A stretch of DNA of 64,000 bases, taken from Candidatus Woesebacteria bacterium GW2011_GWA1_44_23. GTDB lineage: Bacteria > Patescibacteriota > Microgenomatia > UBA8517. The stretch covers positions 21,409-85,408 of the forward strand of contig LCIL01000005.1 in assembly GCA_001001045.1 (NCBI GenBank), written 5' to 3'. Under the pieces are notes generated by a model, which made no database searches, was not told where the DNA came from, and saw only the letters and a program-made list of their open reading frames with translations. Below are positions 13,675 through 50,123 of this stretch, piece after piece. The first letter of the stretch is position 1. Each line of letters begins with the position of its first letter. The position numbers and the translations under genes were made by a program.

Positions 13675-14193
13675 ATGCCCGATACACAATCCGACTCAGT
13701 CAAAAAAGATTTTATTAAATATCTCGATTCTCTTGGCCTTTCTCCCAGATCTCATAAAAATTATAGGAGCGATTTGGGCTACTTCCTTTCCTGGACAATA
13801 TTAAGAATCAGGTCTTTCGGAGCGTACGTCGAGTCGTTAACTGAAGTTGTCCCCTTTTTGAACAAAGATCTTGGCCGTGAATTTAAGAACTACATGACCG
13901 AGAATTCTGTTCCGTCAAAGACCATAAACCGGAGGCTATCCACTCTCAGGCACCTATCCAAATTTTTGACGCAAAGCCATGTTGTCGACAAGGATTTTGC
14001 CGGAGGAATTGAAAATATCAGTTCAAATTACAACAAGAGGCCCGGTATTAATCCTGTTTTCAATGATTTTAGATCGTTTCTCGAAAGTGAGAAGGTTTCC
14101 CCTAACACTATCAAAAACTATCTTTCTGATATAAGACATTTTCTGGCGTGGCTGGAGAATGACAACAAACAAACAGGTAACTTAACAAATTAA
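13675..14193 (+). CDS. Protein of two tandem phage-integrase N-terminal SAM-like domains, no catalytic domain
   Basis: FIKYLDSLGLSPRSHKNYRSDLGYFLSW...SKTINRRLSTLRHLSKFL, then FRSFLESEKVSPNTIKNYLSDIRHFLAWL; ends with no R-H-R-Y catalytic region. Confidence 0.8.
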   Translation: MPDTQSDSVKKDFIKYLDSLGLSPRSHKNYRSDLGYFLSWTILRIRSFGAYVESLTEVVPFLNKDLGREFKNYMTENSVPSKTINRRLSTLRHLSKFLTQSHVVDKDFAGGIENISSNYNKRPGINPVFNDFRSFLESEKVSPNTIKNYLSDIRHFLAWLENDNKQTGNLTN

Positions 14194-14201
14194 CTAAATA
14201 T

Positions 14202-24220: not shown

Positions 24221-26149
24221 ATGGAAATAACCAAGCTCATCCGAAATATCGAAAAATACATCTTGGTAGCACTGGCGGGTTTATTTGCTTTATTTGTTTT
24301 TCCGAAATTTGCCTCCCCCTTCGTTGTCCCTAAGGAAATTTTTGGGGCCGTTGCCGTATCGACAGTGTTGGTTCTTTGGTCGGTGAGATCGATTATTAAA
24401 AGAGAGTCGACTTTTTCTGTCGGAAAGTTTGATCTTGGAGTACTTTTGATAGCACTTGCCTATGTTGTTGCGGCGGTAGTTAAAACTCCGAACAAAATGG
24501 AGGCATTTTTCTTCCCCGGTACCGTAACTTTTGTCATTATTTCTGCTATATTCTATTTTCTGGTCAACCAGTTCGGCAGAAGGACAAAGAACCTGATTTT
24601 AATTGCGCTTTTCGGCTCGGGAATCCTTCTTACGATCTCAATTCTTTTTACGCAGCTTGGGCTTTTTGCCAAAATTCCCCAGCTTCCGGATTTTATGAAA
24701 AACTCTTCTTTCAATCCCGTAGGCGGAGCGCTGCCTTCGGCTCTTTACCTGGTAACCTTACTTCCCGTTGGTATTGCCCTGGTTATTAAGGAGAAGGACT
24801 TGGCCAAAAGGTTATTTTACGGGGTTGCGTCTGTTGTTATCTTTTTTGGAGCAGCTCTTCTTACCATTAACCTTCTTCCCGGAAAGCCCCAAGCCTTGAT
24901 TTTTCCCAGCCTGCTGACCACCTGGGCGATAGTTATTGAGACCTTGAAGACAAGCCCAGTCTGGGGAATGGGCCCTGATAACTATGTTACCGCTTTTAAC
25001 TTGTTTAGGCCCATTTCCTACAATCAAACTGCTCTTTGGGCCGCCAGATATGCCACCGCGAATAACTACTATTTTACTTTGATTACCGAGGTTGGTTTTG
25101 CCGGACTTGCAGCCATCTCGGTACTTCTTATCGGTATTTATAGGGCGGTAGTGGCGGGCTTTAAACAGAAAAACTGGGAGATTGCTTCTTTGGCTCTGCT
25201 GGTTGTGCTTTTTGCGATATTTCCATCCGCTCCGGTTCTCTTTTTCCTTTTGATGGCTCTTCTGGCGGTTTTCTCGAAATCGGAGGAGAAATCCGTAAGT
25301 TTGGCTACCAATAGGGTCCCGACTGCCATTGTTGCAGCTCCGATACTTATTGGGGTTGTTGCTTTGGCAATTTTTGGTACAAGGGCCGTGATGGCGGAAG
25401 TAACTTACAAGAAGTCTTTGGATGCATTGGGCAGCAACAACGCCAAGGATACCTATACGCTAATGGCTCAGGCGATAACCCAGAGCCCATATGTGGATCG
25501 GTACCACGCTTCCCTGGCGCAGGTAGAGATGGCCATTGCTTCGTCAATCGCCAACAACAAGGATTTGACGGAAGAAGACCGTCAAACTATAACACAACTG
25601 ATCAGTCAGGCTATAAATGAGGGCAAGGCGACCGTGACCCTTAATCAGGGAAGGTCGGCCAATTGGGAGCTTCTTGCCCAGATCTATCAGAACATTATGT
25701 CCTTTGCCGAAGGGGCCGATCAGTTCGCCATTGATACATACACGCAGGCGGTTGCGCTTGATCCGATAAACCCCAACCTGAGAATCGGACTCGGTGGAGT
25801 GTATTACGCACTCGGCAGATACGATGACGCGATTGATATCTTTAAGCTTGCAGCTTTGGCAAAGCCCGATTTGGCCAACTCCCATTATAATCTGGCCATA
25901 GCCTATGGAGAGAAGAAAAACTATGACAGTGCAATTGCCGAGATGAACACGGTCTTGACCCTTGTGGCCAAAGATTCACCCGACTACACCTTGGCCAAAA
26001 ATACTCTGGATGCCTTGGAGAAAGCCAGACCCGCAACGCCCGCCGCAGCCGGATCTGAAAATCTGACCCCTCCCCAAAAGCAGGAAACAGTCATAGAGCC
26101 TCCCATAGAACTTCCGGAAGAGGCTACTCCCCCCGCAGCCACACCGTAA
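24221..26149 (+). CDS. O-antigen ligase-like (Wzy_C) polytopic membrane protein with C-terminal TPRs
   Basis: About 12 TM helices, PVWGMGPDNY and ITEVGFAGL motifs, then TPRs (AVALDPINPNLRIGLGGVYY; KPDLANSHYNLA). Confidence 0.75.
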   Translation: MEITKLIRNIEKYILVALAGLFALFVFPKFASPFVVPKEIFGAVAVSTVLVLWSVRSIIKRESTFSVGKFDLGVLLIALAYVVAAVVKTPNKMEAFFFPGTVTFVIISAIFYFLVNQFGRRTKNLILIALFGSGILLTISILFTQLGLFAKIPQLPDFMKNSSFNPVGGALPSALYLVTLLPVGIALVIKEKDLAKRLFYGVASVVIFFGAALLTINLLPGKPQALIFPSLLTTWAIVIETLKTSPVWGMGPDNYVTAFNLFRPISYNQTALWAARYATANNYYFTLITEVGFAGLAAISVLLIGIYRAVVAGFKQKNWEIASLALLVVLFAIFPSAPVLFFLLMALLAVFSKSEEKSVSLATNRVPTAIVAAPILIGVVALAIFGTRAVMAEVTYKKSLDALGSNNAKDTYTLMAQAITQSPYVDRYHASLAQVEMAIASSIANNKDLTEEDRQTITQLISQAINEGKATVTLNQGRSANWELLAQIYQNIMSFAEGADQFAIDTYTQAVALDPINPNLRIGLGGVYYALGRYDDAIDIFKLAALAKPDLANSHYNLAIAYGEKKNYDSAIAEMNTVLTLVAKDSPDYTLAKNTLDALEKARPATPAAAGSENLTPPQKQETVIEPPIELPEEATPPAATP

Positions 26150-26219: not shown

Positions 26220-26244
26220 CCTTGCAAAGTCTCTTCTTACAAGG
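26220..26244. repeat. REP-like imperfect palindrome, left copy
   Basis: CCTTGCAAAGTCTCTTCTTACAAGG, 12 nt before the RAYT-like start; 21/25 identical to the reverse complement of 49377..49401. Confidence 0.55.
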
Positions 26245-26256
26245 TAGTTTTAGATT

Positions 26257-27417
26257 ATGCCTGCCAAACTGCTTAGAAGGGTGGCTGAAGAAGGTACGTT
26301 CAGTCATATATATAATAACGGGGTTGAAAATATAGCCATCTTCAAGGACCGGCAAGACTTTGAAGTCTTTCTGGGTTTTTTGAAAGATTACCTATCTCCG
26401 GTCAGTTCCGAAGTTCCCAAAAAAGAATTCACTATTGAAGGCCGCTCTTTCCGGGGCACTCCCCGCCAACCTAAAAATTACCTGGGCAGAGTCGAGCTTA
26501 TCGCCTACCGGCTCACCCCTACCCATTTCCACCTCATCCTGCATCAGAATACCCCGGACTCGCTTGGGAATTTCATCAGGTCCCTCTGCACCAGATACTC
26601 GATATATTTTAATAAAAAATATTCCCATTCCGGAGCTTTATTCAACGGCCCCTACAAATCAGTTTATATCAAGGGTATATCCCAGCTTTTGCACTTCACC
26701 CGGTATCTCCACCGCAGTCCAGATAATGGTGAAGACCCTGTCAAAATATATACATCATACCCAGAGTATATCGGTCAAAGACAATCTTCATGGGTAAAGA
26801 CGAACGCGGTGCTTTCGGTCAAAGGAGTAGACGAGTACAAGGATTTTGTAGAAAAATATCAGCTTAACCAAGAAGAAAGAGATATTCTCGAAGGTGTTCC
26901 TTTTGATGTCAAAGCCCCGCACAAGGAAGAAGTCCTTTATGCACCCGACACCGTTTCCGCTTCTTCCCATGGGACACCTGAACTTTCCCACAAGGCACCG
27001 CCTACTGATTTAAAACCCCGGCCCCGTATTTTCGAGTACGGACTGGCAATGGGGGTTTTTATTGTACTTCTGAGCTTTGGGTTAAATAATGTCCGTGTTT
27101 CTCAGGCAAGATATTCAACAAACTCTCCGGTTCTTTCCGAATCAACAAGCATTATGCCCTCCCCGACCGCTGCCTTACCACCCACCGGTTCTCCCGAACC
27201 AAAAATAATGGTAACAGTTAAAACTGCTGATGCCTCGGTAAGTGCCAATATCCGCAAGGAGCCGAGTTTTCAGGCGGAAATAATCGGTATGGCCAAAAAC
27301 GGTGAAGTTTTTGAATCCGTGTCGATAGGCCCGGAGTGGAATGAGATCAAACTAAATGACGGTTCAATAGGATTTATATTATCAAAACTGGTACTAATAG
27401 ATCAAACTAATATCTAA
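26257..27417 (+). CDS. RAYT/Y1 (IS200-like HUH) transposase domain fused to TM helix and C-terminal SH3 domain
   Basis: HIYNNG...IFKDRQDF...AYRLTPTHFHL (HUH)...YFNKKY...GALF...RYLHRSP (catalytic Tyr position); TM YGLAMGVFIVLLSFGL; SH3b-like ANIRKEPS...IIG...WNEIKLNDGSIGFI. Confidence 0.85.
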   Translation: MPAKLLRRVAEEGTFSHIYNNGVENIAIFKDRQDFEVFLGFLKDYLSPVSSEVPKKEFTIEGRSFRGTPRQPKNYLGRVELIAYRLTPTHFHLILHQNTPDSLGNFIRSLCTRYSIYFNKKYSHSGALFNGPYKSVYIKGISQLLHFTRYLHRSPDNGEDPVKIYTSYPEYIGQRQSSWVKTNAVLSVKGVDEYKDFVEKYQLNQEERDILEGVPFDVKAPHKEEVLYAPDTVSASSHGTPELSHKAPPTDLKPRPRIFEYGLAMGVFIVLLSFGLNNVRVSQARYSTNSPVLSESTSIMPSPTAALPPTGSPEPKIMVTVKTADASVSANIRKEPSFQAEIIGMAKNGEVFESVSIGPEWNEIKLNDGSIGFILSKLVLIDQTNI

Positions 27418-27418
27418 T

Positions 27419-28009
27419 ATGCGCAAGATTTTAACATATATCGGCTTTGTAATCGCATGTGTTTTGGTTTCTCTGCTTTTTGTAACCGCCACTACATATA
27501 TTCAGTTAGCCGTTGCTGTCATCCTCTACCCCATCGTTGCCTATTTTGTAATGAAGATCCTCCCCCGCAAGACTAGAGTGGTCCCGGCAGTCGCGGTACA
27601 GACAGCGGGAACACAGGAGGAGGTTGCCGATTTTGACAGACGTACATTTCTCAAACTTGTGGGGGCAACAGGAATTTTCTTTTTTGTGTCCTCGCTTTTC
27701 GGTAAATGGGCCGGTGCTTTGCCGTTTGGCAAATCCTTGGGGTTGGGAGGCAATAGCATACAGGGGAATTCCGCCACCCCCGGAGCCGGCAACCCAGGAT
27801 CTTTGACTGCAAATGGCTACCAAATTTCCGAGATCGATGACGGCGCAATTACGTTTTACGGATTTACCAATGTTGACGGATCCTGGCTAATCATGAAGGA
27901 AGACACCGAAACAAGTTCTTTCCGCTATGCAAAAGGAAGCTCGGGATTTCCCGCAAGTTGGGATAACCGGCAAAATCTCAAGTACGACTACTACTATAAT
28001 CTCTTCTGA
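27419..28009 (+). CDS. Membrane protein with two TMs, internal twin-arginine signal and small C-terminal domain
   Basis: DFDRRTFLKLVGATGIFFFVSSLFG after two TM helices; C-terminal YQISEIDD...YGF...WLIM...FRY...W..R..L.YDYY. Confidence 0.75.
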   Translation: MRKILTYIGFVIACVLVSLLFVTATTYIQLAVAVILYPIVAYFVMKILPRKTRVVPAVAVQTAGTQEEVADFDRRTFLKLVGATGIFFFVSSLFGKWAGALPFGKSLGLGGNSIQGNSATPGAGNPGSLTANGYQISEIDDGAITFYGFTNVDGSWLIMKEDTETSSFRYAKGSSGFPASWDNRQNLKYDYYYNLF

Positions 28010-29007
28010 GATTCTTTTGTATTAAGCCCTGCCCGGATTTGGCTTTCGCGGGTAACTATGGCTCCGTAAAAAAGAATACTCAGGGAGAACAACAAAAACA
28101 TTGCCGCCTGACGCACATAAAATGGAGTCGTCGTATCAACCATCTGTTGATCCGGTGAAGCCGTGACCAAAAGCCAATTTCTGTTTCCCAAAGGTACGGG
28201 GGAATATGAAATCAGACGGCCGTCCCTAGCTAAACTCCCTTCCTTTGTCGTATTTAGGGCATCCTTGAGACTGTCGCTGACAGTTTGATTACCCAGAAAC
28301 GGTTCTTCGCCGGCTTCAAAAACCTTGACTCCCACTTTATCAGGCGTCTTGCTATCGTACAATAGATCCCCTTGCACACCTATCAGATACACCTCTGTAG
28401 CATCCGATATTTTCATTAACTCCAAATAGTGTTCCGTCAAAGGCTTCAATTTCGCCGAGGTAACTACAGCCCCTACAAAAACGCCGTTTTGAAATACCGG
28501 AGAGACCACCGGAATTATTACCTGGCCCTTGGTGCCGCCCATTCGGCTAACAATCGAGGTGCCAACCAAATATTCCCCTTCATCTGACCAGTTTTTGGCC
28601 CAGTCAAAATAATCACGGTCGGCCAGGGAAACTCCCACATCTTGCGTTCCCAAAACATTGGAGATAAACCTGACAATTCCGCGGCTGTCCGTTAATGCGA
28701 CTCCGGCAACCAGGCCGCTGTTGCTCCATTGAGTTACAAAGGCGTCTAAATCAGATTGGGTATTTTCACCCCAGCTTTCCATACTGCCCAACTTCGCAAG
28801 TACCGCAACCGAATTGCCGAACGTTTCGAAAAAAGCCTCAAGATTGCTGGCTTCAGCTCTCGTCACCATTTGTTGCTGATTTAAAAACTGGTTAGTGACC
28901 GCAGGTTTGACTCTCCAGCTTAGGATTACTAAAAAGGCAGCACCCAAACCCACTATCAAAAGAAGGCCAAATAACCAAATCCTGCCCGACAATGCTTTCC
29001 AAAACAT
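27994..29007 (-). CDS. Stand-alone dCache sensor-domain membrane protein
   Basis: TM, then LADRDYF...SIVSRMGG...IPVVSPVFQNGVFVGAV...YLIGVQGDLLY...WLLV, then a second TM and only a short tail. Confidence 0.75.
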   Translation of the reverse strand: MFWKALSGRIWLFGLLLIVGLGAAFLVILSWRVKPAVTNQFLNQQQMVTRAEASNLEAFFETFGNSVAVLAKLGSMESWGENTQSDLDAFVTQWSNSGLVAGVALTDSRGIVRFISNVLGTQDVGVSLADRDYFDWAKNWSDEGEYLVGTSIVSRMGGTKGQVIIPVVSPVFQNGVFVGAVVTSAKLKPLTEHYLELMKISDATEVYLIGVQGDLLYDSKTPDKVGVKVFEAGEEPFLGNQTVSDSLKDALNTTKEGSLARDGRLISYSPVPLGNRNWLLVTASPDQQMVDTTTPFYVRQAAMFLLFSLSILFYGAIVTRESQIRAGLNTKESQKRL

Positions 29008-29100: not shown

Positions 29101-29886
29101 ATGCTCTCGATCATAATTCCGTCTTATAAAGATCCCCTACTGGGTAAAACCATTGAATCTCTTCTGGAAAACGCCGAGGGTGAAATAGAAATAATCCCCG
29201 TTCTTGACGGATACTACCCGGAAACCCCGATAAAAGAGGATAGAAGAATAAGAGTTGTGCACCTTGGCAGAAATCAAGGTATGCGAAGAGCGATAAACGC
29301 GGGAGTTTCGGTAGCCCGGGGGGAATTTCTGATGCGGAACGACGAGCACCAGATGTTCGGCAAGGGATATGACGTAATTCTTACCCGTGATTGTCAGCCT
29401 AACTGGATTATCACACCCAGGCGTTATGCGCTTGATCCTGTAAAGTGGGAAATAATGAAAGAGGTTCCACCGGTAGATTTCATGAAGCTTAAAATCGTCA
29501 ACATGGCACCCGGTGTCAGAAAATTTTCAGGTGTTGAGGCCCCGGGAGATCCGGGAAAACCCATTCAGGAATCAATGGCTATGCAGGGAAGCTGTTGGGT
29601 AATGCCGCATGCATGGTGGGACAAAGTTATCGGAGAGCTCGAAAACGAAGGTTATGGACCACATTATCAGGACAGCCATGAGATGGTGTTTAAAACCTGG
29701 CAGGCAGGGGGAAAATTAATGGTAGATAAAAACACCTGGCACGCCCACAAACACAGGAATTTTCCCCGGACGCATAATAACGGCACTGCCGAAAACCCAT
29801 CCAATAATGAATCCTGCTGGGCTTATTCATTAAGTATTTGGGAAGATTACTATAATAAAGAAATTAAACCAAGGTGGAAGGTTTAA
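29101..29886 (+). CDS. GT-A fold glycosyltransferase (GT2/GT27-like, DxH motif)
   Basis: LSIIIPSY, GMRRAINAG, NDEH, QGSCW, KTWQAGG...WHAH. Confidence 0.85.
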   Translation: MLSIIIPSYKDPLLGKTIESLLENAEGEIEIIPVLDGYYPETPIKEDRRIRVVHLGRNQGMRRAINAGVSVARGEFLMRNDEHQMFGKGYDVILTRDCQPNWIITPRRYALDPVKWEIMKEVPPVDFMKLKIVNMAPGVRKFSGVEAPGDPGKPIQESMAMQGSCWVMPHAWWDKVIGELENEGYGPHYQDSHEMVFKTWQAGGKLMVDKNTWHAHKHRNFPRTHNNGTAENPSNNESCWAYSLSIWEDYYNKEIKPRWKV

Positions 29887-29934
29887 CAAAATTGGAGTTA
29901 TAATTCCATCACGGTGGCTATTATATATGAAAGT

Positions 29935-30132
29935 ATGAAAAAAACTATTGGGGAGCTTATCGACGGACTGTCTATTACTAACAACAAGATCTTCCATCTC
30001 GTCGACAAAGTCCAGCGCAACGAGCATACGCGCGAGGATGCAAAAAAAATCCAAGATTTAAATAAGTTAAGAAGTGAGTATATGAATGCTATAAACGAAT
30101 TCTTTAAGGAAAGGATAGATATAAAAGTGTGA
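29935..30132 (+). CDS. Small helical protein (DUF4254-like)
   Basis: MKKTIGELIDGLSITNNKIFH...LNKLRSEYMNAINE; the T-x-GELID-x-LSI pattern is typical of small proteins in glycosylation clusters. Confidence 0.5.
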   Translation: MKKTIGELIDGLSITNNKIFHLVDKVQRNEHTREDAKKIQDLNKLRSEYMNAINEFFKERIDIKV

Positions 30133-30917
30133 TTAGTATTTTCTCTGGAACAAAATTAACATCCTCCCGGATTAGAGGTATAGAAATGGCTACCTATCTC
30201 CAGGCCAAACACAACCCAAAAGAAGGATATAAAAACGATGTTTGTATTTATGTCAAACCCAAAGAAATGAGCGCAATTAAAGACGGTGACTGGGTTGATT
30301 TTCTAGATTCCAACATCAGCCTCATCGTCCAGTTGAAGGATCGGCCAAAGGTAAAGGTGATTGCCGCTTCGGAAGCCAGCAATGAAGCCCTCAAGCGGGT
30401 TTTGCCAAACGAAATTATCCTTATTCCCTCACATCACATCAATCAGGAAAAACTTAAAAGAACAAGAAGGCAGATCTCTATCGGAGGCTATATCGGAGGA
30501 TTCTCACCCATGTATGAAGAAATTAGAAGAGGGTTAAAGAAAATCGGATTTGATTTTGTAACCTGCTTCGATTTCAAAGGACGAACAGATGCGATGAAAC
30601 TGTACGAAAGCATCGATCTTCTGATTATTGGGTGGTGGACCGGAGACGACAGCCCCCATAAGATACCGACCAAGATTATCAACGCCGCCTCGTTTGGAAT
30701 CCCGTCGATTGCATATCCTTTGCGCGGATATAAAGAAATTGAAGGATTTTATGTTTCTGCTCATAATTTAAGTGAGATAATAACTGAAGCGGAAAAATTT
30801 AAGGATGAGGACTATTACAATAGATGGGCAAAGAAGATTTCCAAGATGGCTGAAAAATACCATATTAGCAAGATTGCCAAACTATATAAAAAACTAAAAC
30901 CAGGTTTTCCTGCTTAA
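30129..30917 (+). CDS. Putative glycosyltransferase (GT-B-like)
   Basis: SSRIRG at the N-terminus; KIPTKIINAASFGIPSIAYP resembles a GT-B nucleotide-binding motif; lies in the GT operon. Confidence 0.55.
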   Translation: MISIFSGTKLTSSRIRGIEMATYLQAKHNPKEGYKNDVCIYVKPKEMSAIKDGDWVDFLDSNISLIVQLKDRPKVKVIAASEASNEALKRVLPNEIILIPSHHINQEKLKRTRRQISIGGYIGGFSPMYEEIRRGLKKIGFDFVTCFDFKGRTDAMKLYESIDLLIIGWWTGDDSPHKIPTKIINAASFGIPSIAYPLRGYKEIEGFYVSAHNLSEIITEAEKFKDEDYYNRWAKKISKMAEKYHISKIAKLYKKLKPGFPA

Positions 30918-31018
30918 ATCTCTTGAAGGAATGGGGTATTATACACATTCGGAGAGAAGAGTAATTCCATACCTTCCCTGCTGAGAATCGGGTAAAATGG
31001 TGCGTATAGAATATCCAT

Positions 31019-31888
31019 ATGGGTTCAAACAAAAAACCAATAAACTTATCAATAATAATTCCCAGTCGAGATTGCCCCTATTTAATGAAAACTATCCAAA
31101 GTATATTAGACAATTGCGTCACCAATATTGAAATTATGGTAAATATTGACGGAAAACCCCCGAGAAAATTTATTAAGGACAAAAAGGTCACATATATCGT
31201 ACAACCTACTCCAATTGGGATGCGGGGCGGAATAAATAATGGGCTTAAAGCAGCTAAGGGCAAATTTATAATGAAGTGCGATGACCACTGCTTATTTGCT
31301 AAAGGATTTGACAAGATTCTGACAAACACCATGCAAGAGAATTGGCTGGTAACCCCCAAACGTTATTCTCTAAACGAAGTGAAATGGGAAAGGGATGAAA
31401 CCCGACCAATTAAAGAATATCTCTACCTATCCTATCCCAAAAAGTCCGTTCACGGACTTGCCATGTTCCCCGTAGATTGGAATAAAAAAAGTGATCGTCT
31501 TATAGATGATACCATGATGATTCAGGGAAGCTGTTGGCTAGCAAACAGAAAATATTTCATGAAACGAGTGGGTTTTCTTGACGATAAGCCTGAAACGTAC
31601 GGGACCTTTGCCCAGGAACCCGTAGAAGTTGCTTTGAAATACTGGCTTGGAGGCGGGGCGGTCAAGGTAAACAAAAATACCTGGTATGCCCACCTAAAAA
31701 AGAGTAAAAGGTACTATAACGAAACAGGCTGGGCAGAAAAGTTTGCAAAGCAGAACAAAGCAGTAGCAAAAGGCAATGAATGGGCAACCGTACACTGGAT
31801 GAATAATGAGGAACCCAACATGATTCACCCTTTTAGCTGGTTTATAAAAAAATTTCAACCGATTCCGGGTTGGGAGAATTACAAATGA
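31019..31888 (+). CDS. GT-A fold glycosyltransferase (GT2/GT27-like, DxH motif)
   Basis: LSIIIPSR, GMRGGINNG, CDDHC, QGSCW, EVALKYWLGGG...WYAH. Confidence 0.85.
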   Translation: MGSNKKPINLSIIIPSRDCPYLMKTIQSILDNCVTNIEIMVNIDGKPPRKFIKDKKVTYIVQPTPIGMRGGINNGLKAAKGKFIMKCDDHCLFAKGFDKILTNTMQENWLVTPKRYSLNEVKWERDETRPIKEYLYLSYPKKSVHGLAMFPVDWNKKSDRLIDDTMMIQGSCWLANRKYFMKRVGFLDDKPETYGTFAQEPVEVALKYWLGGGAVKVNKNTWYAHLKKSKRYYNETGWAEKFAKQNKAVAKGNEWATVHWMNNEEPNMIHPFSWFIKKFQPIPGWENYK

Positions 31889-33372
31889 AAAAAATACTAA
31901 TAACAGGATGCGGAGGGATGTTGGGCGATGCTGTTTATGCTCAATTACGTAAAAGGTATCATGTCAACGCCACCGACATCAACCTCATTGAACCCTGGCT
32001 AAGTTACTTGGACGTCAGAGACCTTAAGAGTGTTAAAAAGGTTTGCGCCGAATTCAAACCGGATTATCTGATTCATCTGGCAGCCTTAACCGACATGGAA
32101 TACTGTGAAACCCACCCAGAAGAGGCGGCGCAAGTTAACGGAACTGCCACAGAAAATCTGGTTAAAATCTCCAAAAAACTTGATATTCCCTTTGTCTACA
32201 TCAGCACTGCAGGTATTTTTACCGATGACAAAAAGGAGCATAGCGAAAAAGACGACCCCAAAGACACTCCTGTAAGTGTATATGGCAAAACCAAATACCA
32301 AGGTGAGGTAGCAGCGAAATCATGGCGTAAGTCGATCATAATCAGGGCCGGTTGGATGATGGGTGGCGGACCCAAAAAGGACAAAAAATTCATCAATAAA
32401 ATTGTCAAACAATTAAGTAGCGGCGCTACAAAGATAAATGTGGTCAACGACAGGGTCGGCACCCCAAGCTATACCTACGATTTGGCAAAAATAATTGTAT
32501 TTCTTCTCGAAAGGAATCTTTACGGTTTATATCACGGCACTTGCGACGGAGGAAACGTAACCCGCCACGATGTCGTCAGTCATATACTTGAATGTTTTAA
32601 CTTGCAAGACAAGGTCAAAGTGGTTGAGGTGGGATCAGATTATTTTAAGGATAGTTTTTTTGCCCCGCGGCCGTTTTCCGAACAGCTAGGCAACAAAAAA
32701 CTTAAATCCACCAACCCAGAATTATTCCGCAGCTGGCGGGACTGTTTAAAGGAATATTTAGGCATGTTTTATTGGAAAGTATCAGGCAACCATACCCCGC
32801 TTTGCGATCTGGCCTATAAATACGGAACCGACAAATGTCCGGAAATAAACCATTCGTATACCCCTTTTTATTACAAATTGCTACAACCCAAAAGAAACTC
32901 TATCAAAAAGATTTTGGAAATAGGAATAGGCTACCCGTCCAACATGAATCATATCGTCCCCCATTACCGGGCGGGTGCAAGTTTATATATGTGGAGGGAG
33001 TTTTTCCCCAACGCCATGATTTACGGAGCTGATATTCTCCCGGAAGCGTTGTTCAAAGACGCACATATAGAAACTTTTTTGTGTAACCAGAAAAAAGACA
33101 CGGACCTAACGAATTTAATCAAAAGCACGGGCTCGGATATCGATATCGTAATTGACGACGGCTCTCATGTAAAAAAGGTCCAGGTGTTTACTTGCCTTAT
33201 CCTATTGCCTCTTCTCAAAAAAGATGTTATTTACATAATAGAAGATGTTAAAGATGCCGTCGAGGTTACCGGAATGATTAAAAAACTCGGCGGGTATGAT
33301 TGCGAGGTTCCGAAGTTGAACCCGGAAAGGCAAGTGAGGCAGGATTGTTTGGTTATTGTTAAAAACAAATGA
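31885..33372 (+). CDS. RmlD-like dTDP-4-dehydrorhamnose reductase fused to class I SAM methyltransferase
   Basis: ILITGCGGMLG, HLAALTDMEYCE, YGKTK, GTPSYTYDLA; then YGTDK...HSYTPFY...LEIGIG...GASLYMWREFFP...DIVIDDGSH. Confidence 0.85.
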   Translation: MKKILITGCGGMLGDAVYAQLRKRYHVNATDINLIEPWLSYLDVRDLKSVKKVCAEFKPDYLIHLAALTDMEYCETHPEEAAQVNGTATENLVKISKKLDIPFVYISTAGIFTDDKKEHSEKDDPKDTPVSVYGKTKYQGEVAAKSWRKSIIIRAGWMMGGGPKKDKKFINKIVKQLSSGATKINVVNDRVGTPSYTYDLAKIIVFLLERNLYGLYHGTCDGGNVTRHDVVSHILECFNLQDKVKVVEVGSDYFKDSFFAPRPFSEQLGNKKLKSTNPELFRSWRDCLKEYLGMFYWKVSGNHTPLCDLAYKYGTDKCPEINHSYTPFYYKLLQPKRNSIKKILEIGIGYPSNMNHIVPHYRAGASLYMWREFFPNAMIYGADILPEALFKDAHIETFLCNQKKDTDLTNLIKSTGSDIDIVIDDGSHVKKVQVFTCLILLPLLKKDVIYIIEDVKDAVEVTGMIKKLGGYDCEVPKLNPERQVRQDCLVIVKNK

Positions 33373-34091
33373 AAAATCTACTGGTTTATGTAAGTAAAGA
33401 TAAAAAGTTTAACCGGGAGTGTGAGACTCTGGCCAAAATCCAAATTGACAACAGTCTTCGTTTAAAGTGGAGAAAAGAAGATATTTTAATGGTCACTAAC
33501 TTTGATTATGAGTATCGGGGAGTTAAAGCTATCGTTGTAGGGGACGAGAATTATTGTGCAGTCAGGCCAAGATCGATTAAAACTTCGATAATCCCCCACT
33601 TAATTGAAAAGGGAATCATAGAAAAAAGGCATATTTACTGGAATCATGATTTTGACGCTTTTCAATTGCATTCTATCAAAGATGAAGAATTGGGACTAGA
33701 CGGTTTTGATGCGGGCTTTACCGACTACGGTTGGAAAAACGACTGGTGTTTGGGAAGTGATTTTATAAAGGAGAGCGCAAAAGACATCTTTGAGTGGCTG
33801 AGGGACGCAATATTTGCTAATTGGGAGGATGAGGAAATACTCGGAAGAATTACGAGAAGGAATACACATAATATCAACTCGAGAATAAAGAAAATGAATA
33901 TAACTTATCAGATTGGAATGAAAAACGTTGATTTTAACTACAAAATAGCTGCAAAACCGCTAAAAGTTCTCCACTTCCATCCGCATAAACCGGGGCTCCT
34001 AGACATCTTCATGTACGGCAAAAACCAAACGGACAAACCCCTTATGCCTAAGGGTTTAATCAATATATTTAATAAACACGGAATAAAGTAA
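33369..34091 (+). CDS. Putative glycosyltransferase/nucleotide-diphospho-sugar transferase
   Basis: DxD motif (WNHDFDAF), late LHFHP motif, position in the GT operon. Confidence 0.55.
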   Translation: MKNLLVYVSKDKKFNRECETLAKIQIDNSLRLKWRKEDILMVTNFDYEYRGVKAIVVGDENYCAVRPRSIKTSIIPHLIEKGIIEKRHIYWNHDFDAFQLHSIKDEELGLDGFDAGFTDYGWKNDWCLGSDFIKESAKDIFEWLRDAIFANWEDEEILGRITRRNTHNINSRIKKMNITYQIGMKNVDFNYKIAAKPLKVLHFHPHKPGLLDIFMYGKNQTDKPLMPKGLINIFNKHGIK

Positions 34092-34260
34092 ATACGTTAT
34101 GAGCAAACCATCAGTGGTGGCAATCTTGCCGAATTTTTAAAAAGTATTAGAAAAAGGTGCGAAAACCTATAGAGATCCATAATATTTGCAATCCAAATAT
34201 TAATTCCCAAACGAATATCCTGGGTATCGGAATGAAGGTCATGGAAATTTTCAGAAATAT

Positions 34261-34944
34261 ATGAATAGAGATTTAACAATAATTTATTACTCATCTAATC
34301 GGGAAGTGCCCGAGTTTGAGACCAGAATTAGGAACAATATTTTAAAAGTTTGTGGCGATTTGCCCATAATAAGCGTTACTCAAAAGCCGATAGACTTTGG
34401 AAAAAATATTGTTGTTGGAGATGTGGGAGCTTCTGGGTTTAACATGTTTAGGCAAGTTCAAATTGCCTGCAAGGAGGCAACAACGAAGTTCGTAGTTTCT
34501 GCTGAAGCGGATTGCTTGTACCCCCCGGACTATTTCACCTTTATTCCCGAGAAGGACAACGTATGTTACCGTAATAAAAATCTATATGTAATGGGTCAAT
34601 ATAGAACCTATTTCTACAAAAAGGAGGAAGGTGCAACGCACGCCCAAGTGGTCGGGCGGGAGTTCTGCTTAAGAACTCTGGATAAACTTTTTGAAGGAGG
34701 TCCGAATTGGTCAATCAAGGAGAGAAATTTCCCCAAAGAGAGGACTCATCAAAAAAAGGAGGATGTTTTTGGCAGTGACGAAATTGAATTCTACGAGACA
34801 AAAAATCCGATTGTACAAATAAAAACAAGCCACAGCATGCGACATTACACTCATTCTGATAGAATACCTCGTGACGAACTTCCCTATTGGGGCAAGGGGG
34901 TAGATTTTAGAAAAAAATATTACGATATCGGATTTAGGCATTAA
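34261..34944 (+). CDS. Putative GT-A-like glycosyltransferase
   Basis: TIIYYS...PIISVTQKPIDFGKNIVV...AEADCLYPPDYF; paralog of 35578..36321. Confidence 0.55.
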   Translation: MNRDLTIIYYSSNREVPEFETRIRNNILKVCGDLPIISVTQKPIDFGKNIVVGDVGASGFNMFRQVQIACKEATTKFVVSAEADCLYPPDYFTFIPEKDNVCYRNKNLYVMGQYRTYFYKKEEGATHAQVVGREFCLRTLDKLFEGGPNWSIKERNFPKERTHQKKEDVFGSDEIEFYETKNPIVQIKTSHSMRHYTHSDRIPRDELPYWGKGVDFRKKYYDIGFRH

Positions 34945-34946
34945 AT

Positions 34947-35576
34947 ATGAAACTAATAGATGCAATTAAAGAGCAGCACGGAAGGCCATTTACAATCCCC
35001 GATTGCTCCCGTGATGAACTCCCCGAATGTTTTAAACAAATGGGCTACAAAACAGGGGCAGAGGTCGGGGTTTATAAGGGGGCGTTTACCGAAAAATTCT
35101 GTAAAGCAGGCTTAAAAATGTATGCCATAGATCCCTGGAAGGCATATCAGGGAGCCGGCCGTACTCAACAGGAACAAGCAAGGCAAGACTTCCTTTACGG
35201 GCATACTCAAAGGACTCTCGCTCCCTATAAAGACTGTACAATAATCAGAAAGACGTCGATGGACGCTCTAAACGACTTCGGCCCGGGAAGCCTGGACTTT
35301 GTCTATTTGGACGGCGATCACCGCTTCCCGTACGTGGCACAAGATATTTATGAATGGAGCGAGAAAGTCAAAAACGGTGGGGTGGTCTCCGGGCATGATT
35401 ATTTCTGCACGGATCCACGGGCAAAAAATGTTTTGTGCCAGGTGGGCGCGATAGTAGATGCTTATGTTAGTGCCTTCGGAATTGAAAATTTTTATGTATT
35501 CGGACGGTCCAAATCACTGGAACTTGAGGCCAAAGATGACAGATATCTAAGCTGGATGTGGATTAAGCCTCTCTGA
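34947..35576 (+). CDS. Class I SAM-dependent methyltransferase (Methyltransf_24-like)
   Basis: GAEVGVYKG, YAIDPW, LDFVYLDGDH, VKNGGVVSGHDY. Confidence 0.85.
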   Translation: MKLIDAIKEQHGRPFTIPDCSRDELPECFKQMGYKTGAEVGVYKGAFTEKFCKAGLKMYAIDPWKAYQGAGRTQQEQARQDFLYGHTQRTLAPYKDCTIIRKTSMDALNDFGPGSLDFVYLDGDHRFPYVAQDIYEWSEKVKNGGVVSGHDYFCTDPRAKNVLCQVGAIVDAYVSAFGIENFYVFGRSKSLELEAKDDRYLSWMWIKPL

Positions 35577-35577
35577 C

Positions 35578-36321
35578 ATGACAAGCACAAAAGGGTGCAT
35601 TTACTACACCGATAACCGCCCGAAGTCTTTTATTTTGGATAAATGCCGTGAGGAAATTTTAAAAGGCTGGAAAGGTCCCCTGGTTTCGGTTTCGCTTCAA
35701 CCGATTGACTTCGGCAAAAATATAGTCTTGGCAGGGGTAGAACGCGGACTCCCGACTATGATCAAACAAATAACAATGGCTTTGGAGGCACTGGATACTG
35801 ACATTGTCTTTTTTCTGGAACATGATGTTTTATATCACCCGTCTCATTTCGATTTCACTCCCCCAAAGGAAGAAATCTATTATTACAATCTCAATAACTG
35901 GCGCTGGGGAATTAAGGAAAATTTTGCTATTACATACGATGGTCTGACCTCCCTTTCTCAACTCGCATGTTACCGAAAAACTGCCCTAAACCATTATAAA
36001 GGAAGACTTAAATACATCATTGACCACGGACTTAACAAGGACCAAAGCCGGGATCCGAGATGGGGACGGGTTATGGGCTACGAGCCCGGAACAAAGCCCA
36101 GGAGGAGGGGTGGTTTTTCCGATGAAAAGTTTGAGATTTGGAAAAGCGATTTTCCAAACATAGATATCCGCCACAGACATACATTTTCCCCGCCGAAATA
36201 CAATTTGGCTGATTTCAAACATCAACCGATAAACTTCCGCCAAGAGAAAATTGAAAATATTCCTTACTGGAATCTGAAAACGTTGCGGGATCAATGGCTG
36301 GATAAATACATAATAAATTAA
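35578..36321 (+). CDS. Putative GT-A-like glycosyltransferase
   Basis: CIYYTDN...VSVSLQPIDFGKNIV...LEHDVLYHPSHF; paralog of 34261..34944. Confidence 0.55.
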   Translation: MTSTKGCIYYTDNRPKSFILDKCREEILKGWKGPLVSVSLQPIDFGKNIVLAGVERGLPTMIKQITMALEALDTDIVFFLEHDVLYHPSHFDFTPPKEEIYYYNLNNWRWGIKENFAITYDGLTSLSQLACYRKTALNHYKGRLKYIIDHGLNKDQSRDPRWGRVMGYEPGTKPRRRGGFSDEKFEIWKSDFPNIDIRHRHTFSPPKYNLADFKHQPINFRQEKIENIPYWNLKTLRDQWLDKYIIN

Positions 36322-36406
36322 ATGAATAAAGGCATGGTTCTCCACACCGCTTTTCCCGGCTTTGATAATGCCTAAGTATGCTGTATTATTGCCTCACGCG
36401 AAACCT

Positions 36407-37474
36407 ATGGCTGATCTTTCAATATTAATACCGGCACGGAATGAAATATTTCTGGCCCGCACGATAGAAGACCTCCTGGCAAACATCGAGGCTGATACCG
36501 AGATCATCGCTGTTTTGGACGGGGTACCCGCCAACCCTCCGATTCCCAAAAATGAAAGAGTAAATGTAATCTCCCTTTCCGAAAGTATCGGACAAAGGGC
36601 GGCAACTAATCTTGCCTGTAAATTAAGCCGCGCCAAATATGTAATGAAGGTAGACGCACACTGCGGATTTGATAAAGGTTTTGACCGAAAAATGCTCGAG
36701 GCATTTAAAATTACCGGAGACAACGTTACGATGGTCCCAATTATGCGTAACCTCTGGGCATATGACTGGAAATGCTACCACTGCGGCTGGAAAAAATACC
36801 AAGGCCCCACTCCGGAAAAGTGTGGGCAGTGCGGTAAGGGAGACAAAATTAGAAGAAAGATGCTTTGGATCGGAAAACATAACCCTCAAAGTACTTCTTA
36901 CTGCTTTGACTCGTCTCCCCATTTCCAGTACTTCGAGGATTGGAAACACCGGCCGCAATACGAAAAAGACAAGAGAGAAACGGGACTGACTGAAACAATG
37001 AGCCTGCAGGGCAGCTGCTGGATGTTGACCCGCGAAAAATACTGGGACCTTAATGTTTGCGAAGAAGCATTTGGGGGTTGGGGTTCTCAGGGAATTGAAG
37101 TTGCGGTTAAAACCTGGCTTTCCGGAGGTAGAGTTATTGTCAATCATAAAACTTGGTATGCACATATGTTTAGAACCCAAGGGGGCGACTTCGGGTTCCC
37201 CTACCCGATTTCAGGAAAGGATCAGGAAAAGGCGAAAAGATATGCAAGGGATTTGTTTTTCAACAATAACTGGAATAAGCAAATTCGCCCTCTTTCCTGG
37301 CTCATCGAAAAATTCTGGCCGGTGAAGGGGTGGGCAGAAGAAGACTTGACCAAGCTTAAAACAAACACTTTCAGATTTAAAGAGAAAGCGGAGCCAAAAC
37401 CTGCCGAGAGTGAGCCCGTTACAAGTGATCCGGTAAGAAACCATCAGACGGGTGTTATTTACTCCGCCACTTAA
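36407..37474 (+). CDS. GT-A fold glycosyltransferase (GT2/GT27-like) with zinc-ribbon insertion
   Basis: DLSILIPARNE, VDAHC, CYHC...CGQC insert, QGSCW, GWGSQGIEVAVKTWLSGG...YAHMFR. Start placed at MADLS. Confidence 0.85.
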   Translation: MADLSILIPARNEIFLARTIEDLLANIEADTEIIAVLDGVPANPPIPKNERVNVISLSESIGQRAATNLACKLSRAKYVMKVDAHCGFDKGFDRKMLEAFKITGDNVTMVPIMRNLWAYDWKCYHCGWKKYQGPTPEKCGQCGKGDKIRRKMLWIGKHNPQSTSYCFDSSPHFQYFEDWKHRPQYEKDKRETGLTETMSLQGSCWMLTREKYWDLNVCEEAFGGWGSQGIEVAVKTWLSGGRVIVNHKTWYAHMFRTQGGDFGFPYPISGKDQEKAKRYARDLFFNNNWNKQIRPLSWLIEKFWPVKGWAEEDLTKLKTNTFRFKEKAEPKPAESEPVTSDPVRNHQTGVIYSAT

Positions 37475-42817: not shown

Positions 42818-42845
42818 TACTTGCTATCTTCAGTGATAGCAAGTA
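42818..42845. promoter_or_regulatory. Perfect 11-bp inverted repeat upstream of second RAYT-like gene
   Basis: TACTTGCTATC-ttcagt-GATAGCAAGTA, ending 10 nt before GTG 42856. Confidence 0.6.
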
Positions 42846-42855
42846 ACTTAAAACT

Positions 42856-43902
42856 GTGACTGCCCATGATTATCAAGCCAAACTAAATGGGGTACTATAT
42901 TCCCATGTTTATCGTGATCTCGCATCTGAAAAAATTTTCATTGATAACGAAGATTATCAGGCATTCGTAAACTTCTTAAATGAATACTTGTCTGACAAAA
43001 ATGTTGATGATAGTAAAAAAATATTTACAATAAGGGGGCATACTTACCAAGGAGTCCCCCGTTTACCTAAAAACTTCTCTAAACAGATTGAGCTTTTAGC
43101 CTATAAGTTAGAGCCAAATCGTTTTGACTTCCTGATAAGAGAAAATGTTCCTGGGACTACTCAAAAGTTCATAAGAGCCGTATCAACAAGGTACGCCCTA
43201 TACTACAACAAGAAACATCATCGAACCGGTTCCCTATTCAAGGATACTTACAAACTGGAAAGAATCAGCGATCCTGCACTACTACCAGGTCTAATTCGTA
43301 GCCTCCACAGTAACTTTAGTAAAAAAGACGGTGTGCCCGATCATGCTTACTCTTCATGCCCTGAATATCTTGGTCAAAGAGCATCGAATTGGATCAATTC
43401 GCAGGCTATACTTTCTAATGAAGGACTGGGTGATCAAAAGCTGTACCCGGAAAAGGGTAAACCGGAAACCGGTGTACGTGTCACCCGTTATCGCCCAAGA
43501 TCCAAAGCCAGGGTACCAGAAATAATATTATCCATTGCGATTCTGGCTATGCTAATAGCTCAAAGTATATTAAGAATCGAAACTTCTTCAACATCAAAAG
43601 CTTCATACTCGCCTCCTTCATACGCTACGGTTCTGGGTGACAAAAGGGAAGCAACGGAAGACGAAAATATAAAAACCGTAGAAGTGAATCAAGGGAAGGT
43701 TTTAATTGATACCGTTGATAATTTGGAAAGTGTAGATATCTATCGGGACGCTTTGTTATCGTCACTTAAAATTGGCGAGGCTAAGGATAATGACATCTTT
43801 GAGCTTGTTTCTGAAAGCCCGGGCTGGTATCAAGTAAAACTTATTAATGGGTCAACTGGCTATGTCTCGTCAGAATATTCGGAAATAATAACGAATTATT
43901 AA
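42856..43902 (+). CDS. Degenerate RAYT/Y1 domain fused to TM and SH3 domain (paralog of 26257..27417)
   Basis: IFIDNEDY...LLAYKLEPNRFDF (HUH lost)...YYNKKHHRTGSLF...IRSLHSN (Tyr lost); TM IILSIAILAMLIA; SH3 VDIYRD...GWYQVKLINGSTGYVS. Confidence 0.8.
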   Translation: MTAHDYQAKLNGVLYSHVYRDLASEKIFIDNEDYQAFVNFLNEYLSDKNVDDSKKIFTIRGHTYQGVPRLPKNFSKQIELLAYKLEPNRFDFLIRENVPGTTQKFIRAVSTRYALYYNKKHHRTGSLFKDTYKLERISDPALLPGLIRSLHSNFSKKDGVPDHAYSSCPEYLGQRASNWINSQAILSNEGLGDQKLYPEKGKPETGVRVTRYRPRSKARVPEIILSIAILAMLIAQSILRIETSSTSKASYSPPSYATVLGDKREATEDENIKTVEVNQGKVLIDTVDNLESVDIYRDALLSSLKIGEAKDNDIFELVSESPGWYQVKLINGSTGYVSSEYSEIITNY

Positions 43903-43903
43903 A

Positions 43904-44572
43904 ATGATCAAAAAAATTATGTTATATGGCAGTTTCTTGGCTGCCAGCTCTGCTGATACGGCCGTTTTCCTTGCGTCTAATGATTATTTTCATCTTGCGC
44001 TTGCCATCCTTCTTTATTTCCCGTTAATTTATATTGCTTTTATAATATTTCCTCGCAGAACCGAATTTGCTGGGAATGTCCCAATCCACCAGGGAAATGG
44101 AATAGAGCCAAACCTGCTAACCACTAACAAGATCGGACAATTTTCCGGCTCCCCTTCCCCTTCGACCGACAGCGTCGAAGTTTCCGACATCAATAAACGG
44201 GTGTTTCTCAAAATGATTGGGGCTACGGGTTTATCCTTCTTCATTTCTTCTCTTATTTCAAAAAGGTTGCCTTCTCATGTTTTCGGGCAATCTGAAGAAC
44301 CAACAACAACCTCTATCATAGATTCCACAGGAGAGGCAGTAGACCCTGCCAAGCACCACCCCACTGACAGCTATAAAATTTCCGAGGTCGACTATGGAAT
44401 TAATACCTATTATGGCTTTATTGATGAAAATGATGGCTGGTTCATTATGGAACAAGATACAAATGCCGGAACCTACCGTTATATAAAAGGCAATGCGAAT
44501 TTTCCTGATAATTGGAGGAGCCGCGAAAGTCTTACATATGACTATTACAATAAAATTTTTGCCAAATCGTGA
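43904..44572 (+). CDS. Membrane protein with internal Tat-like signal (paralog of 27419..28009)
   Basis: DINKRVFLKMIGATGLSFFISSLI; C-terminal YKISEVD...YYGF...WFIM...YRY...W..R..L.YDYY. Confidence 0.75.
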   Translation: MIKKIMLYGSFLAASSADTAVFLASNDYFHLALAILLYFPLIYIAFIIFPRRTEFAGNVPIHQGNGIEPNLLTTNKIGQFSGSPSPSTDSVEVSDINKRVFLKMIGATGLSFFISSLISKRLPSHVFGQSEEPTTTSIIDSTGEAVDPAKHHPTDSYKISEVDYGINTYYGFIDENDGWFIMEQDTNAGTYRYIKGNANFPDNWRSRESLTYDYYNKIFAKS

Positions 44573-49376: not shown

Positions 49377-49401
49377 TCTTGTAAGGAGAGACCTTTCAAG
49401 G
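49377..49401. repeat. REP-like imperfect palindrome, right copy (inverted relative to 26220..26244)
   Basis: TCTTGTAAGGAGAGACCTTTCAAGG; stem CTTG-x-AAGG / CCTT-x-CAAG. Confidence 0.55.
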
Positions 49402-49486: not shown

Positions 49487-49681
49487 ATGGCAATTTCTTC
49501 ACCGGTACTTGTTGAGATAGGTCAGGGTTTGTCTTTAATGGTCGGTCTCCCGACGATCGCATCTTGGAATTCTCAGAAGCGTCCGCAAAAAGCAAAAAGG
49601 GGTACGTTCGGATTTAACACCCAGACAAAAAGTTTGGAATATTGGGACGGGTCGGGGTGGTACACTGCCAAGCTTAGTTAG
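49487..49681 (+). CDS. Small protein consisting of the SP-protein C-terminal domain
   Basis: IASWNSQKRPQKAKRGTFGFNTQTKSLEYWDGSGW aligns with both SP-protein C-termini. Confidence 0.75.
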   Translation: MAISSPVLVEIGQGLSLMVGLPTIASWNSQKRPQKAKRGTFGFNTQTKSLEYWDGSGWYTAKLS

Positions 49682-49731: not shown

Positions 49732-49935
49732 ATGCTTAATTTCATTAAAAATATCGGTCCCGTAGAGTGGGTGGTTATTCTTCTTATTCTGATAATAATT
49801 TTCGGCCGCAAAATACTTGTAAGCCTTGGCCGTGCCAGTGGTGAAACAGTTAGGGAACTGAAAAGCGTTAAGAAAAGCTTGACCGACGCTGTTGAAGGAA
49901 CAGAGGACAAGCCCGAGAAGAAGGAGGTGTCTTAA
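49732..49935 (+). CDS. tatA: TatA/TatB-family translocase subunit
   Basis: IGPVEWVVILLILIIIFG hinge, then amphipathic LGRASGETVRELK. Confidence 0.8.
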   Translation: MLNFIKNIGPVEWVVILLILIIIFGRKILVSLGRASGETVRELKSVKKSLTDAVEGTEDKPEKKEVS

Positions 49936-49941
49936 AAATTT

Positions 49942-50103
49942 ATGTTTCAATCGATAGGGACAACAGAGTGGATAATAATTGCCGTCTTGGTACTTTTACT
50001 CTTCGGAGGAAAAAAGATTCCGGAATTTTTCAAAGGCATCGGTGAGGCCGTCAGGGAGTTTAAGAAAGCTTCAAAAGATACCGACGAGAAAAAAGAAGGA
50101 TAA
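49942..50103 (+). CDS. tatA: TatA translocase subunit (53 aa, below ORF-track cutoff)
   Basis: [53 protein letters not shown]; RBS AAGGAGGT at 49921. Confidence 0.92.
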
Positions 50104-50123
50104 TCCAGTAGAATGTTCTCAAG

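Follow-up and report, generated by a model that had tools for sequence, protein, structure and literature searches.

The window, by which we mean the whole 64,000-nucleotide stretch of DNA analysed here, carries a gene, A1, in which a transposase-derived domain of the RAYT (TnpA-REP) type is joined to a single membrane helix and an SH3b domain, a kind of SH3 domain that binds cell walls. The features of A1 are as follows.

26257..27417, + strand: gene A1, encoding 386 aa with a RAYT-derived domain, linker, transmembrane (TM) helix, spacer and SH3b domain
26266..26916, + strand: RAYT/TnpA-REP fold, aa 4-220 (match to 4er8, Z 14.6)
26524-26532, + strand: H90 and H92 of A1 (H-F-H)
26704-26706, + strand: Y150 of A1 (RYLH)
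26716-26718, + strand: Ser154 of A1, where an Asn metal ligand is expected
27028..27084, + strand: single predicted transmembrane helix, aa 258-276 (hydropathy 1.99)
27202..27408, + strand: SH3b domain at about aa 316-384, predicted to lie outside the membrane (Pfam and fold matches)

An AlphaFold2 model of A1 was built with 119 homologs as input (mean pLDDT 82.3), and its best solved match among 998 re-aligned chains was E. coli TnpA-REP, 4er8 (Z 14.6, rmsd 2.9 over 157 residues). The RAYT/Y1 fold proposed by the initial annotation is thereby confirmed, although the Pfam family Y1_Tnp itself matches aa 78-150 of A1 below the cut-off (E 0.0011; 19.5 against 23 bits); in the family member P0068 it lies above the cut-off. 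The SH3-like domain was likewise borne out, by an above-cut-off SH3_3 match at aa 329-378 (E 1.5e-7) and by SH3b structures that match model residues 313-386 with Z about 10-11. A PDB sequence search with A1 gave no usable match (best E 0.32), PHROGs held no family matching A or B, and P0001 reached no curated NCBIfam model. The single helix expected from the initial annotation was recovered by hydropathy and spans residues 258-283 in the model, between two segments with pLDDT <50 (219-253 and 286-311). One hydrophobic segment is present in 120/120 fused homologs vs 0/120 soluble sisters, and the mean K+R count of the fused homologs is 2.96 before and 1.83 after the helix, a weak positive-inside bias. 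Together with the hydropathy and the absence of an N-terminal signal, this bias suggests an N-in topology, and the ToxR-like layout suggested earlier (RAYT, one helix, SH3b) thus holds, with the topology inferred from hydropathy.

The fusion of RAYT, TM and SH3b is real and not an assembly artefact. Single contigs from 2 of 4 public runs span almost the entire A1 gene with zero differences, and two more bridge the RAYT-TM-SH3 junction; 3 of these 4 runs may themselves be a source of the assembled DNA. Nor is it a one-off. A word-indexed search returned 377 relatives of A1, and among the best 120 of these the few with a named source belong to Microgenomates lineages. A profile search over 1.84 billion cluster representatives (50% identity) placed a RAYT domain together with a helix in 144 of the best 150 representatives considered, the other 6 being excluded for lack of a helix above threshold, and 138 of the 144 also carry SH3b. 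The fused protein occurs in many ultra-small groundwater bacteria and forms a large Microgenomates family. Two members (L043 and P0012) carry two tandem SH3b domains, and L052 and L054 no recognisable one.

In a FastTree phylogeny that included 41 soluble domains besides 47 fused ones, the latter group in a single clade (stem 0.36, SH-like support 0.999), whose nearest neighbours are soluble RAYTs of 225-230 residues from the same bacteria. Motifs would place the ancestor of the fused family near subclass 2.1, as that subclass is described in part of PMC6006769. Comparison of A1 with L104 yielded dN/dS of 0.061/0.49 for the RAYT domain and 0.052/0.404 for SH3b, and in 11/11 close pairs the RAYT-domain ratio is about 0.12-0.20, which points to purifying selection on the RAYT domain of the fused proteins. 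The selection test suggested beforehand thus returned a ratio of about 0.12. These data bear on the possibility that A1 is a passenger or artefact, a decaying transposase read through by chance into a membrane gene. The weak Y1_Tnp score and one truncated member (L049) are compatible with such decay, but the single clade at SH-like 0.999, the 144 fused clusters at 50% identity, the contigs bridging the junction and the dN/dS of about 0.12 leave it hardly any probability, and the selection data already contradict it.

The domain has been kept while its catalytic residues have not. The three metal ligands of RAYTs are two histidines and an Asn/Gln four residues after the Tyr (N119 in E. coli), and Y-x3-NP is the class 2 signature, according to part of PMC6006769. 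Among the soluble sisters, HUH, Tyr and Asn are all present in 120/120, and Y-x3-NP in 119/120. Among 120 close fused proteins (P0002, a near copy of the query, was excluded from these motif counts), HUH is found in 107, Tyr in 86, the full HUH+Tyr+N/Q set in 4 and Y-x3-NP in 0; the corresponding numbers for the 144 diverse fused proteins are 97, 61, 5 and 0, with HUH and Tyr both present in 52. Replacements of the Tyr by Phe, His or other residues (83/144) are scattered across the tree, and a relative 80% identical to A1 has Arg in place of His90. The initial annotation had credited A1 with a full active site: the HFH at 26524-26532 (H90 and H92) and the Tyr in RYLH (Y150) are both present, but the third metal ligand is missing, since Ser154 occupies the Tyr+4 position. 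In contrast to this erosion, R108, S109, T112, R113, Y114, Y117, N119, G126, F129 and Y133 are kept in 135-142 of the 144 fused proteins, and both the basic helix 108-121 and the G-x-x-F-x-G-P-Y-K behind it are nearly invariant. Given the low dN/dS, this pattern suggests that catalysis is dispensable whereas the domain is not.

A nuclease output, as originally proposed for this protein, is unlikely because the catalytic set is eroded family-wide and His90 is lost at 80% identity. A flat verdict of "dead" is weakened by the fact that HUH is still the majority state (97/144) and that the number of complete sites among the 120 close fused proteins would rise to 29 if Glu, Asp or His were able to act as the ligand at +4. 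One could imagine a nuclease gated by signal, in which the members retaining HUH and Tyr (52/144, including A1 with H90, H92 and Y150) nick or recombine a palindrome described below on an envelope cue, for example to spread its copies or to switch the island; that dispersed palindromes occur mainly in RAYT-type loci would fit. We consider this very unlikely, given the Ser at the ligand position of A1, the His90 to Arg change in its 80%-identical relative, and the loss of the Tyr in 83/144 proteins across the tree, a change whose equivalent, Y115F, serves as the inactive control of the E. coli enzyme in the portion of PMC8266576 cited here. No joints or rearranged forms were seen among contigs of the 4 public runs, a weak argument in the same direction.

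The initial annotation overlooked that A is one half of an obligate gene pair, which heads a Tat-linked glycosylation island. The relevant features of the window are as follows.

27419..28009, + strand: gene B1, with two TM helices, an RRTFLK twin-arginine-type motif and a third, weaker helix, starting 2 bases past A1
27994..29007, - strand: TM-dCache_1-TM protein with no output domain, an optional member of the module (Pfam dCache_1, E 4.3e-15)
29101..37474, + strand: glycosyltransferase/methyltransferase cluster (GT2, RmlD-like, Methyltransf_24; Pfam)
42856..43902, + strand: gene A2, an A1 paralog (28% identity) lacking the two HUH histidines and the Tyr
43904..44572, + strand: gene B2, a B1 paralog with a KRVFLK motif, duplicated along with A2
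49732-49935, + strand: tatA
49942-50103, + strand: tatA
50124-50873, + strand: tatC

A2 is the diverged paralog that had been noted at 42856-43902, and its 28% identity and the loss of both histidines and the Tyr were verified. B lies directly downstream of A in 58/58 metagenome loci with room for it, like the associated proteins of co-component regulators (as presented in part of PMC10269533). Its helices in B1 have hydropathies of 2.75, 2.30 and 1.72, and its C-terminal 65-residue domain resembles small uncultured-phage proteins. Searches of viral contigs with the A and B queries used here gave 167 and 358 pattern matches, of which 0 were confirmed, so that a prophage location is not supported; a feature-based atlas search with the B domain gave no usable match. 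The R, F and K of the twin-arginine-type motif are invariant in 121 B sequences, and B1 and B2 are the only strict motif matches among the 1078 open frames of the source genome, G000. The motif begins with RR in 16/19 loci lacking a fused domain, often together with an A-x-A site, and with KR in 38/43 loci that have one. KR in place of RR can be tolerated in a Tat motif.

TatC was found in 25/35 B-positive vs 6/266 B-negative genomes, a co-occurrence among related genomes that are not independent. In 15 of the 25 it lies within 25 kb of B on the same contig, and 10/35 B-positive genomes have no TatC match. A higher-scoring TatC type occurs without B (G103, G105, G160 and G191). Tat in Microgenomatia has been noted, and the part of PMC9166423 cited here draws no link to B. 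By its sequence features, B has the pattern of a dual Sec-Tat protein: with the actinobacterial Rieske and similar proteins (PMC5449189, in part) it shares an even number of helices followed by a twin-arginine-type motif, a final helix of lower hydrophobicity and trailing positive charges. Unlike them, it has no cofactor-binding domain, carries KR in 38/43 fused-domain loci and is found in 10/35 genomes without a TatC match.

The tatC of these islands is accompanied by two to eight tatA-like genes (window 49732-50873; G256:C6, G083:C1, G141:C27, G285:C19), an unusual expansion for tiny genomes. The genes between B and tat include some for giant proteins (800-3000 aa) in which no signal peptide is evident (window 37649-42538 and 45051-49365; L068, L080, L085, L097-L099, L101) and which might be exported piggy-back through Tat with B. 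A 64-residue mini-protein precedes tatA (49487-49681) and occupies the same place in L049, L080 and L082. Directly upstream of A1, at 24221-26149, lies a Wzy_C-like O-antigen-ligase/TPR protein, which is near or next to A in 5/44 clustered stretches. A role in competence was rejected: comEA/comEC are near in only 3/44 clustered stretches and were taken as chromosomal neighbours.

We used B as an anchor to survey what precedes it, combining 43 genome loci with 35 of the 38 places taken from 301 genomes of the same class (62 distinct B genes). The gene upstream of B is a RAYT-type A in 34 loci and a tandem MerR/HTH_17-TM-SH3b gene in 9, and in the remaining 19 there is no fused DNA-binding domain. 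The TM-SH3b part of the MerR-type proteins is homologous to that of the RAYT type (42% over 130 aa), and MerR, RAYT, TM and SH3b coexist in the single proteins P0068 and P0103. The natural series of no domain, RAYT, MerR+RAYT and MerR thus represents output domains exchanged on one membrane scaffold. That a MerR-type and a RAYT domain replace each other on the same TM-SH3b is our strongest argument for DNA binding as the job of this slot; this swap and the palindrome kept at the promoter (see below) support the DNA-binding type of output that the initial annotation had offered beside the nuclease. MerR-type genes are scattered within the RAYT-type part of the B tree, and it is this part that separates, at a support of 0.938, from the 19 loci without a fused domain; this tree was midpoint-rooted, so the order of the output-domain changes is only a suggestion. 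The 19/62 B genes that stand behind SH3b or small membrane genes indicate that the module can exist without this output.

The neighbourhood differs among the three groups. A GT2/methyltransferase cluster lies within 5 kb of B in 22/30 RAYT-type, 8/8 MerR-type and 5/18 other loci with room, and a dCache gene adjoins B in 10/34, 2/9 and 0/19, respectively. The cluster at 29101..37474 likely comprises the regulated genes. Of the 19 loci that lack the fusion, 4 have a separate HTH_17-TM gene; in L058, L061, L062, L063 and L097, such a two-helix protein is encoded a short distance upstream of B, so that the module has yet another, third means of binding DNA. A conserved leader is common to the MerR-type loci (L028, L032, L036, L038, L041, L047, L053, L055, L057), as is a divergent PIN-domain gene; small MerR/excisionase-like genes often accompany them. 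Soluble RAYTs of more distant clades occur near B or inside the island in six fusion-less loci (L085, L089, L091, L093, L095, L101); two have altered Tyr motifs, and these loci hint that the islands attract RAYT insertions.

The DNA ahead of A1 and A2 contains the following elements.

26221..26243, + strand: REP-like imperfect palindrome before A1 (upstream-DNA alignment and matrix)
26222-26227, + strand: predicted -35 box in the left palindrome arm
26245-26250, + strand: predicted -10 box, 6 bases ahead of the A1 ATG, likely leaderless
42818..42845, + strand: perfect 11-bp inverted repeat of variant sequence at the same promoter position before A2 (fold -8.5 kcal/mol)
49378..49400, - strand: second near-consensus palindrome, about 90 bases ahead of the mini-gene that precedes tatA-tatA-tatC (score 31.9)

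The family consensus is a 23-base imperfect palindrome with a -35-like hexamer in its left arm, followed by a -10-like hexamer and, about 6 bases on, the start codon; the promoter elements were called by eye from spacing in aligned upstream DNA. Before A2, 0/100 shuffles fold as low as the -8.5 kcal/mol of the inverted repeat. A matrix trained on 35 genome loci detected the palindrome (held-out threshold score >=17, i.e. at least 17) upstream of 49/55 held-out fused metagenome genes vs 0/395 control genes, after exclusion of 13 of the 68 metagenome genes that were training sites or had short upstream DNA. The distance from palindrome to start codon is 13-14 bases in 38/55 of these genes. The palindrome is kept in 21/21 genes with HUH and Tyr and in 19/24 catalytically altered genes (10 of the 55 were not parsed). 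A generic promoter feature was rejected as an explanation by the 0/395 controls; at a score of at least 11, G000 has 15 matches vs 12-19 in five shuffles.

Because the left arm also serves as the -35 box, the independent evidence is limited to the loop and right arm, which are as conserved as the -10 box (1.2-1.8 bits at T11, T13, T15, C17, T18, A22, A23 and G24). A back-to-back promoter does not account for the right arm, as no -10-like hexamer was seen by eye at the mirrored spacing. There was no stem covariation: in 34 sites (L031, where no motif was found, was excluded), Watson-Crick counts equal the independent-column expectation at all 13 pairs. Therefore, sequence rather than pairing seems to be kept in the palindrome, with the perfect 11-bp repeat of A2 as an exception. 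A GTAG/GTGG foot was not seen at the palindromes, whose genomic copies are few.

The distribution of palindromes follows the RAYT domain. In a scan of 84 stretches, 82 matches fell in 45 RAYT-type stretches (duplicates and training sites included), and 2 in 13 MerR-type (one site counted twice), whereas neither the 21 stretches that lack a fused domain nor the 5 extensions gave any. None of the 9 MerR-type genes is preceded by the palindrome; upstream of them lies another inverted repeat, which may be just two divergent -35 boxes. The palindrome is missing also from the promoter of L119, the one MerR+RAYT gene with DNA. Extra copies outside A are intergenic in 20/21 cases, some just ahead of a GT2 gene (L156, L177, L182, L042, L046), and a copy precedes the tat genes in the window and in L049. 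G000 has only three sites scoring >18, one of them outside the island, which suggests a small regulon; 49378..49400 is its best non-training palindrome. This genome (93.7% complete) contains two fused copies only, and the palindrome persists there although no soluble Y1 protein was found in the assembly. In L108, L114, L117, L138, L172, L173 and L174, the promoter copy is preceded, at a distance of about 50 bases, by a second direct copy, a possible tandem operator, and two overlapping weaker palindromes lie in a peptidase-like gene just outside the window (G000:C5:20491-20530).

An inverted copy of the palindrome was also detected inside the linker of 31/68 metagenome fused genes, and a separate scan gave 27 minus-strand matches inside A; none was detectable in the linker of A1. 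Several soluble sisters have fuller palindromes flanking the gene on both sides. The linker copy probably represents the former right-hand end of the element, which would explain how the fusion arose.

These data bear on a reading in which the RAYT fold binds no nucleic acid and instead docks on the cytoplasmic side of a surface-fibre export complex, the palindrome being merely a promoter. The HTH of RodZ, which binds MreB, offers an analogy, and the 19/62 loci without a fused domain, the lack of stem covariation and the conserved residues specific to fused proteins (H70, P132, S135 and T148) fit such a scaffold. It is nevertheless quite unlikely, because the loop and right arm, which lie in the promoter spacer, are conserved like the -10 box, and because two unrelated nucleic-acid-binding folds fill the same slot.

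Taken together, these observations are consistent with A being a transmembrane regulator like ToxR/ToxS, with an exapted, catalytically relaxed RAYT as its putative DNA-binding domain, an interpretation to which we give an even chance. We hypothesize that a small mobile element, made up of a RAYT with a palindrome on its left and an inverted one on its right, inserted ahead of an existing TM-SH3b gene, and that read-through then joined RAYT to TM-SH3b, whereby the right palindrome would have become linker codons and the left one promoter and operator. The RAYT domain would bind the palindrome over the -35 box of its own gene, leading to autoregulation, and also scattered palindromes before glycosyltransferase or tat genes. 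Information on the cell surface or on Tat export would come from SH3b, the partner B and sometimes the dCache protein that lacks an output domain, and this signal would alter the dimerisation or stability of A. Characterised RAYTs recognise folded single-stranded hairpins, as stated in part of PMC8266576, whereas a promoter is double-stranded; to be bound in this way, the promoter would need to extrude, or else the binding mode must have changed. The absence of a glycosyltransferase cluster within 5 kb in 8/30 RAYT-type loci argues against the regulator.

Alternatively, A may bind the palindrome and hold the DNA of the island at the membrane (and at the wall via SH3b), so that the island's membrane and export proteins are produced where they are inserted, with no signal involved. 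Catalytic erosion, palindrome retention and the swap to MerR fit such a tether equally well, and the long low-confidence linker and spacer around the helix (pLDDT <50 at 219-253 and 286-311) would be poor for mechanical coupling. However, the main site lies over the predicted -35 box at a fixed 13-14 bases from the start in 38/55 genes, the usual place of an operator, and an output-less dCache sensor joins 12/43 loci with a fused DNA-binding domain. We therefore regard the tether as unlikely.

The regulator reading can be extended to a tentative and rather doubtful idea, namely that a whole REPtron was domesticated in one step, the transposase as the output of a membrane receptor and the end palindrome as its operator, to control a dedicated Tat route by which giant surface fibres, glycosylated and lacking a signal, would leave the cell piggy-back on B. 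If true, this would be the first HUH transposase fold serving as a transcription factor, and it might read hairpin-extruded promoter DNA.

With the known RAYTs of TnpA-Y1 class 2 (nearest subclass 2.1; E. coli TnpA-REP, 4er8), the fused family shares the fold, the H-F-H, the F that replaces a conserved W and, in most members, the downstream SS motif. The soluble sisters resemble class 2 in carrying Y-I-H-L-N-P and in having their gene flanked by palindromes; the fused family differs from that class by having Y-x3-NP in 0/144 and by its membrane anchor, SH3b and fixed operon position. For subclass 2.1, the cited part of PMC6006769 reports that no REPs were found alongside, gives only HTH/DnaA_C as tails and discards long fusions; the words transmembrane, SH3 and membrane are absent from the available text of that paper. 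IS200/IS605 class 1 transposases (about 150 aa, Y-x3-Q, with many near-identical copies or tnpB) contrast with the 386 aa of A1, its lack of the Gln, and two A copies at 28% identity with no tnpB beside them. Our literature search, which covered few subscription journals, found no description of a membrane-anchored RAYT or of a RAYT-TM-SH3b fusion.

Among regulators, A shares with ToxR/ToxS, TcpP/TcpH and VtrA/VtrC, as described in part of PMC10269533, a DNA-binding-type domain, one helix, an outer domain and a partner encoded directly downstream. It differs in that its output has an HUH transposase fold rather than a helix-turn-helix, its outer domain is SH3b, and its partner is a three-helix protein with a Tat motif rather than a lipocalin. 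The 9 MerR-type members fall outright under the definition of co-component regulators given there, while DNA binding by the RAYT type is inferred from fold, swap and palindrome. The closest concept is that of TldR, the nuclease-dead TnpB repressors (bioRxiv 10.1101/2023.11.30.569447, in part), in which an IS200/IS605-related enzyme has lost catalysis and is kept for binding near promoters, as proposed here for A. In contrast to TldR, A comes from the TnpA side, is membrane-anchored with no guide RNA seen, and has apparently kept the element's own end sequence as its target.

Why bacteria keep RAYT genes is described as an open question in part of PMC6006769. The A family offers a traceable case, in which a RAYT was fixed in a host operon and catalysis was lost while the binding surface and target site were kept, and it provides a ready in vitro pair, a 220-residue domain and a 23-base site. 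If A is indeed a regulator, the transmembrane regulators would gain a new DNA-binding fold, and TldR a counterpart from the TnpA side. Regulators are few in Patescibacteria, which live on the surfaces of their hosts. A sensor heading a surface-glycoprotein and Tat island is a candidate control point for attachment. Elsewhere in the same island (window 13675-18890), a giant TM surface protein carries phage-integrase SAM-like domains at its cytoplasmic end, a further case of a DNA-binding domain of mobile elements tied to a membrane protein.
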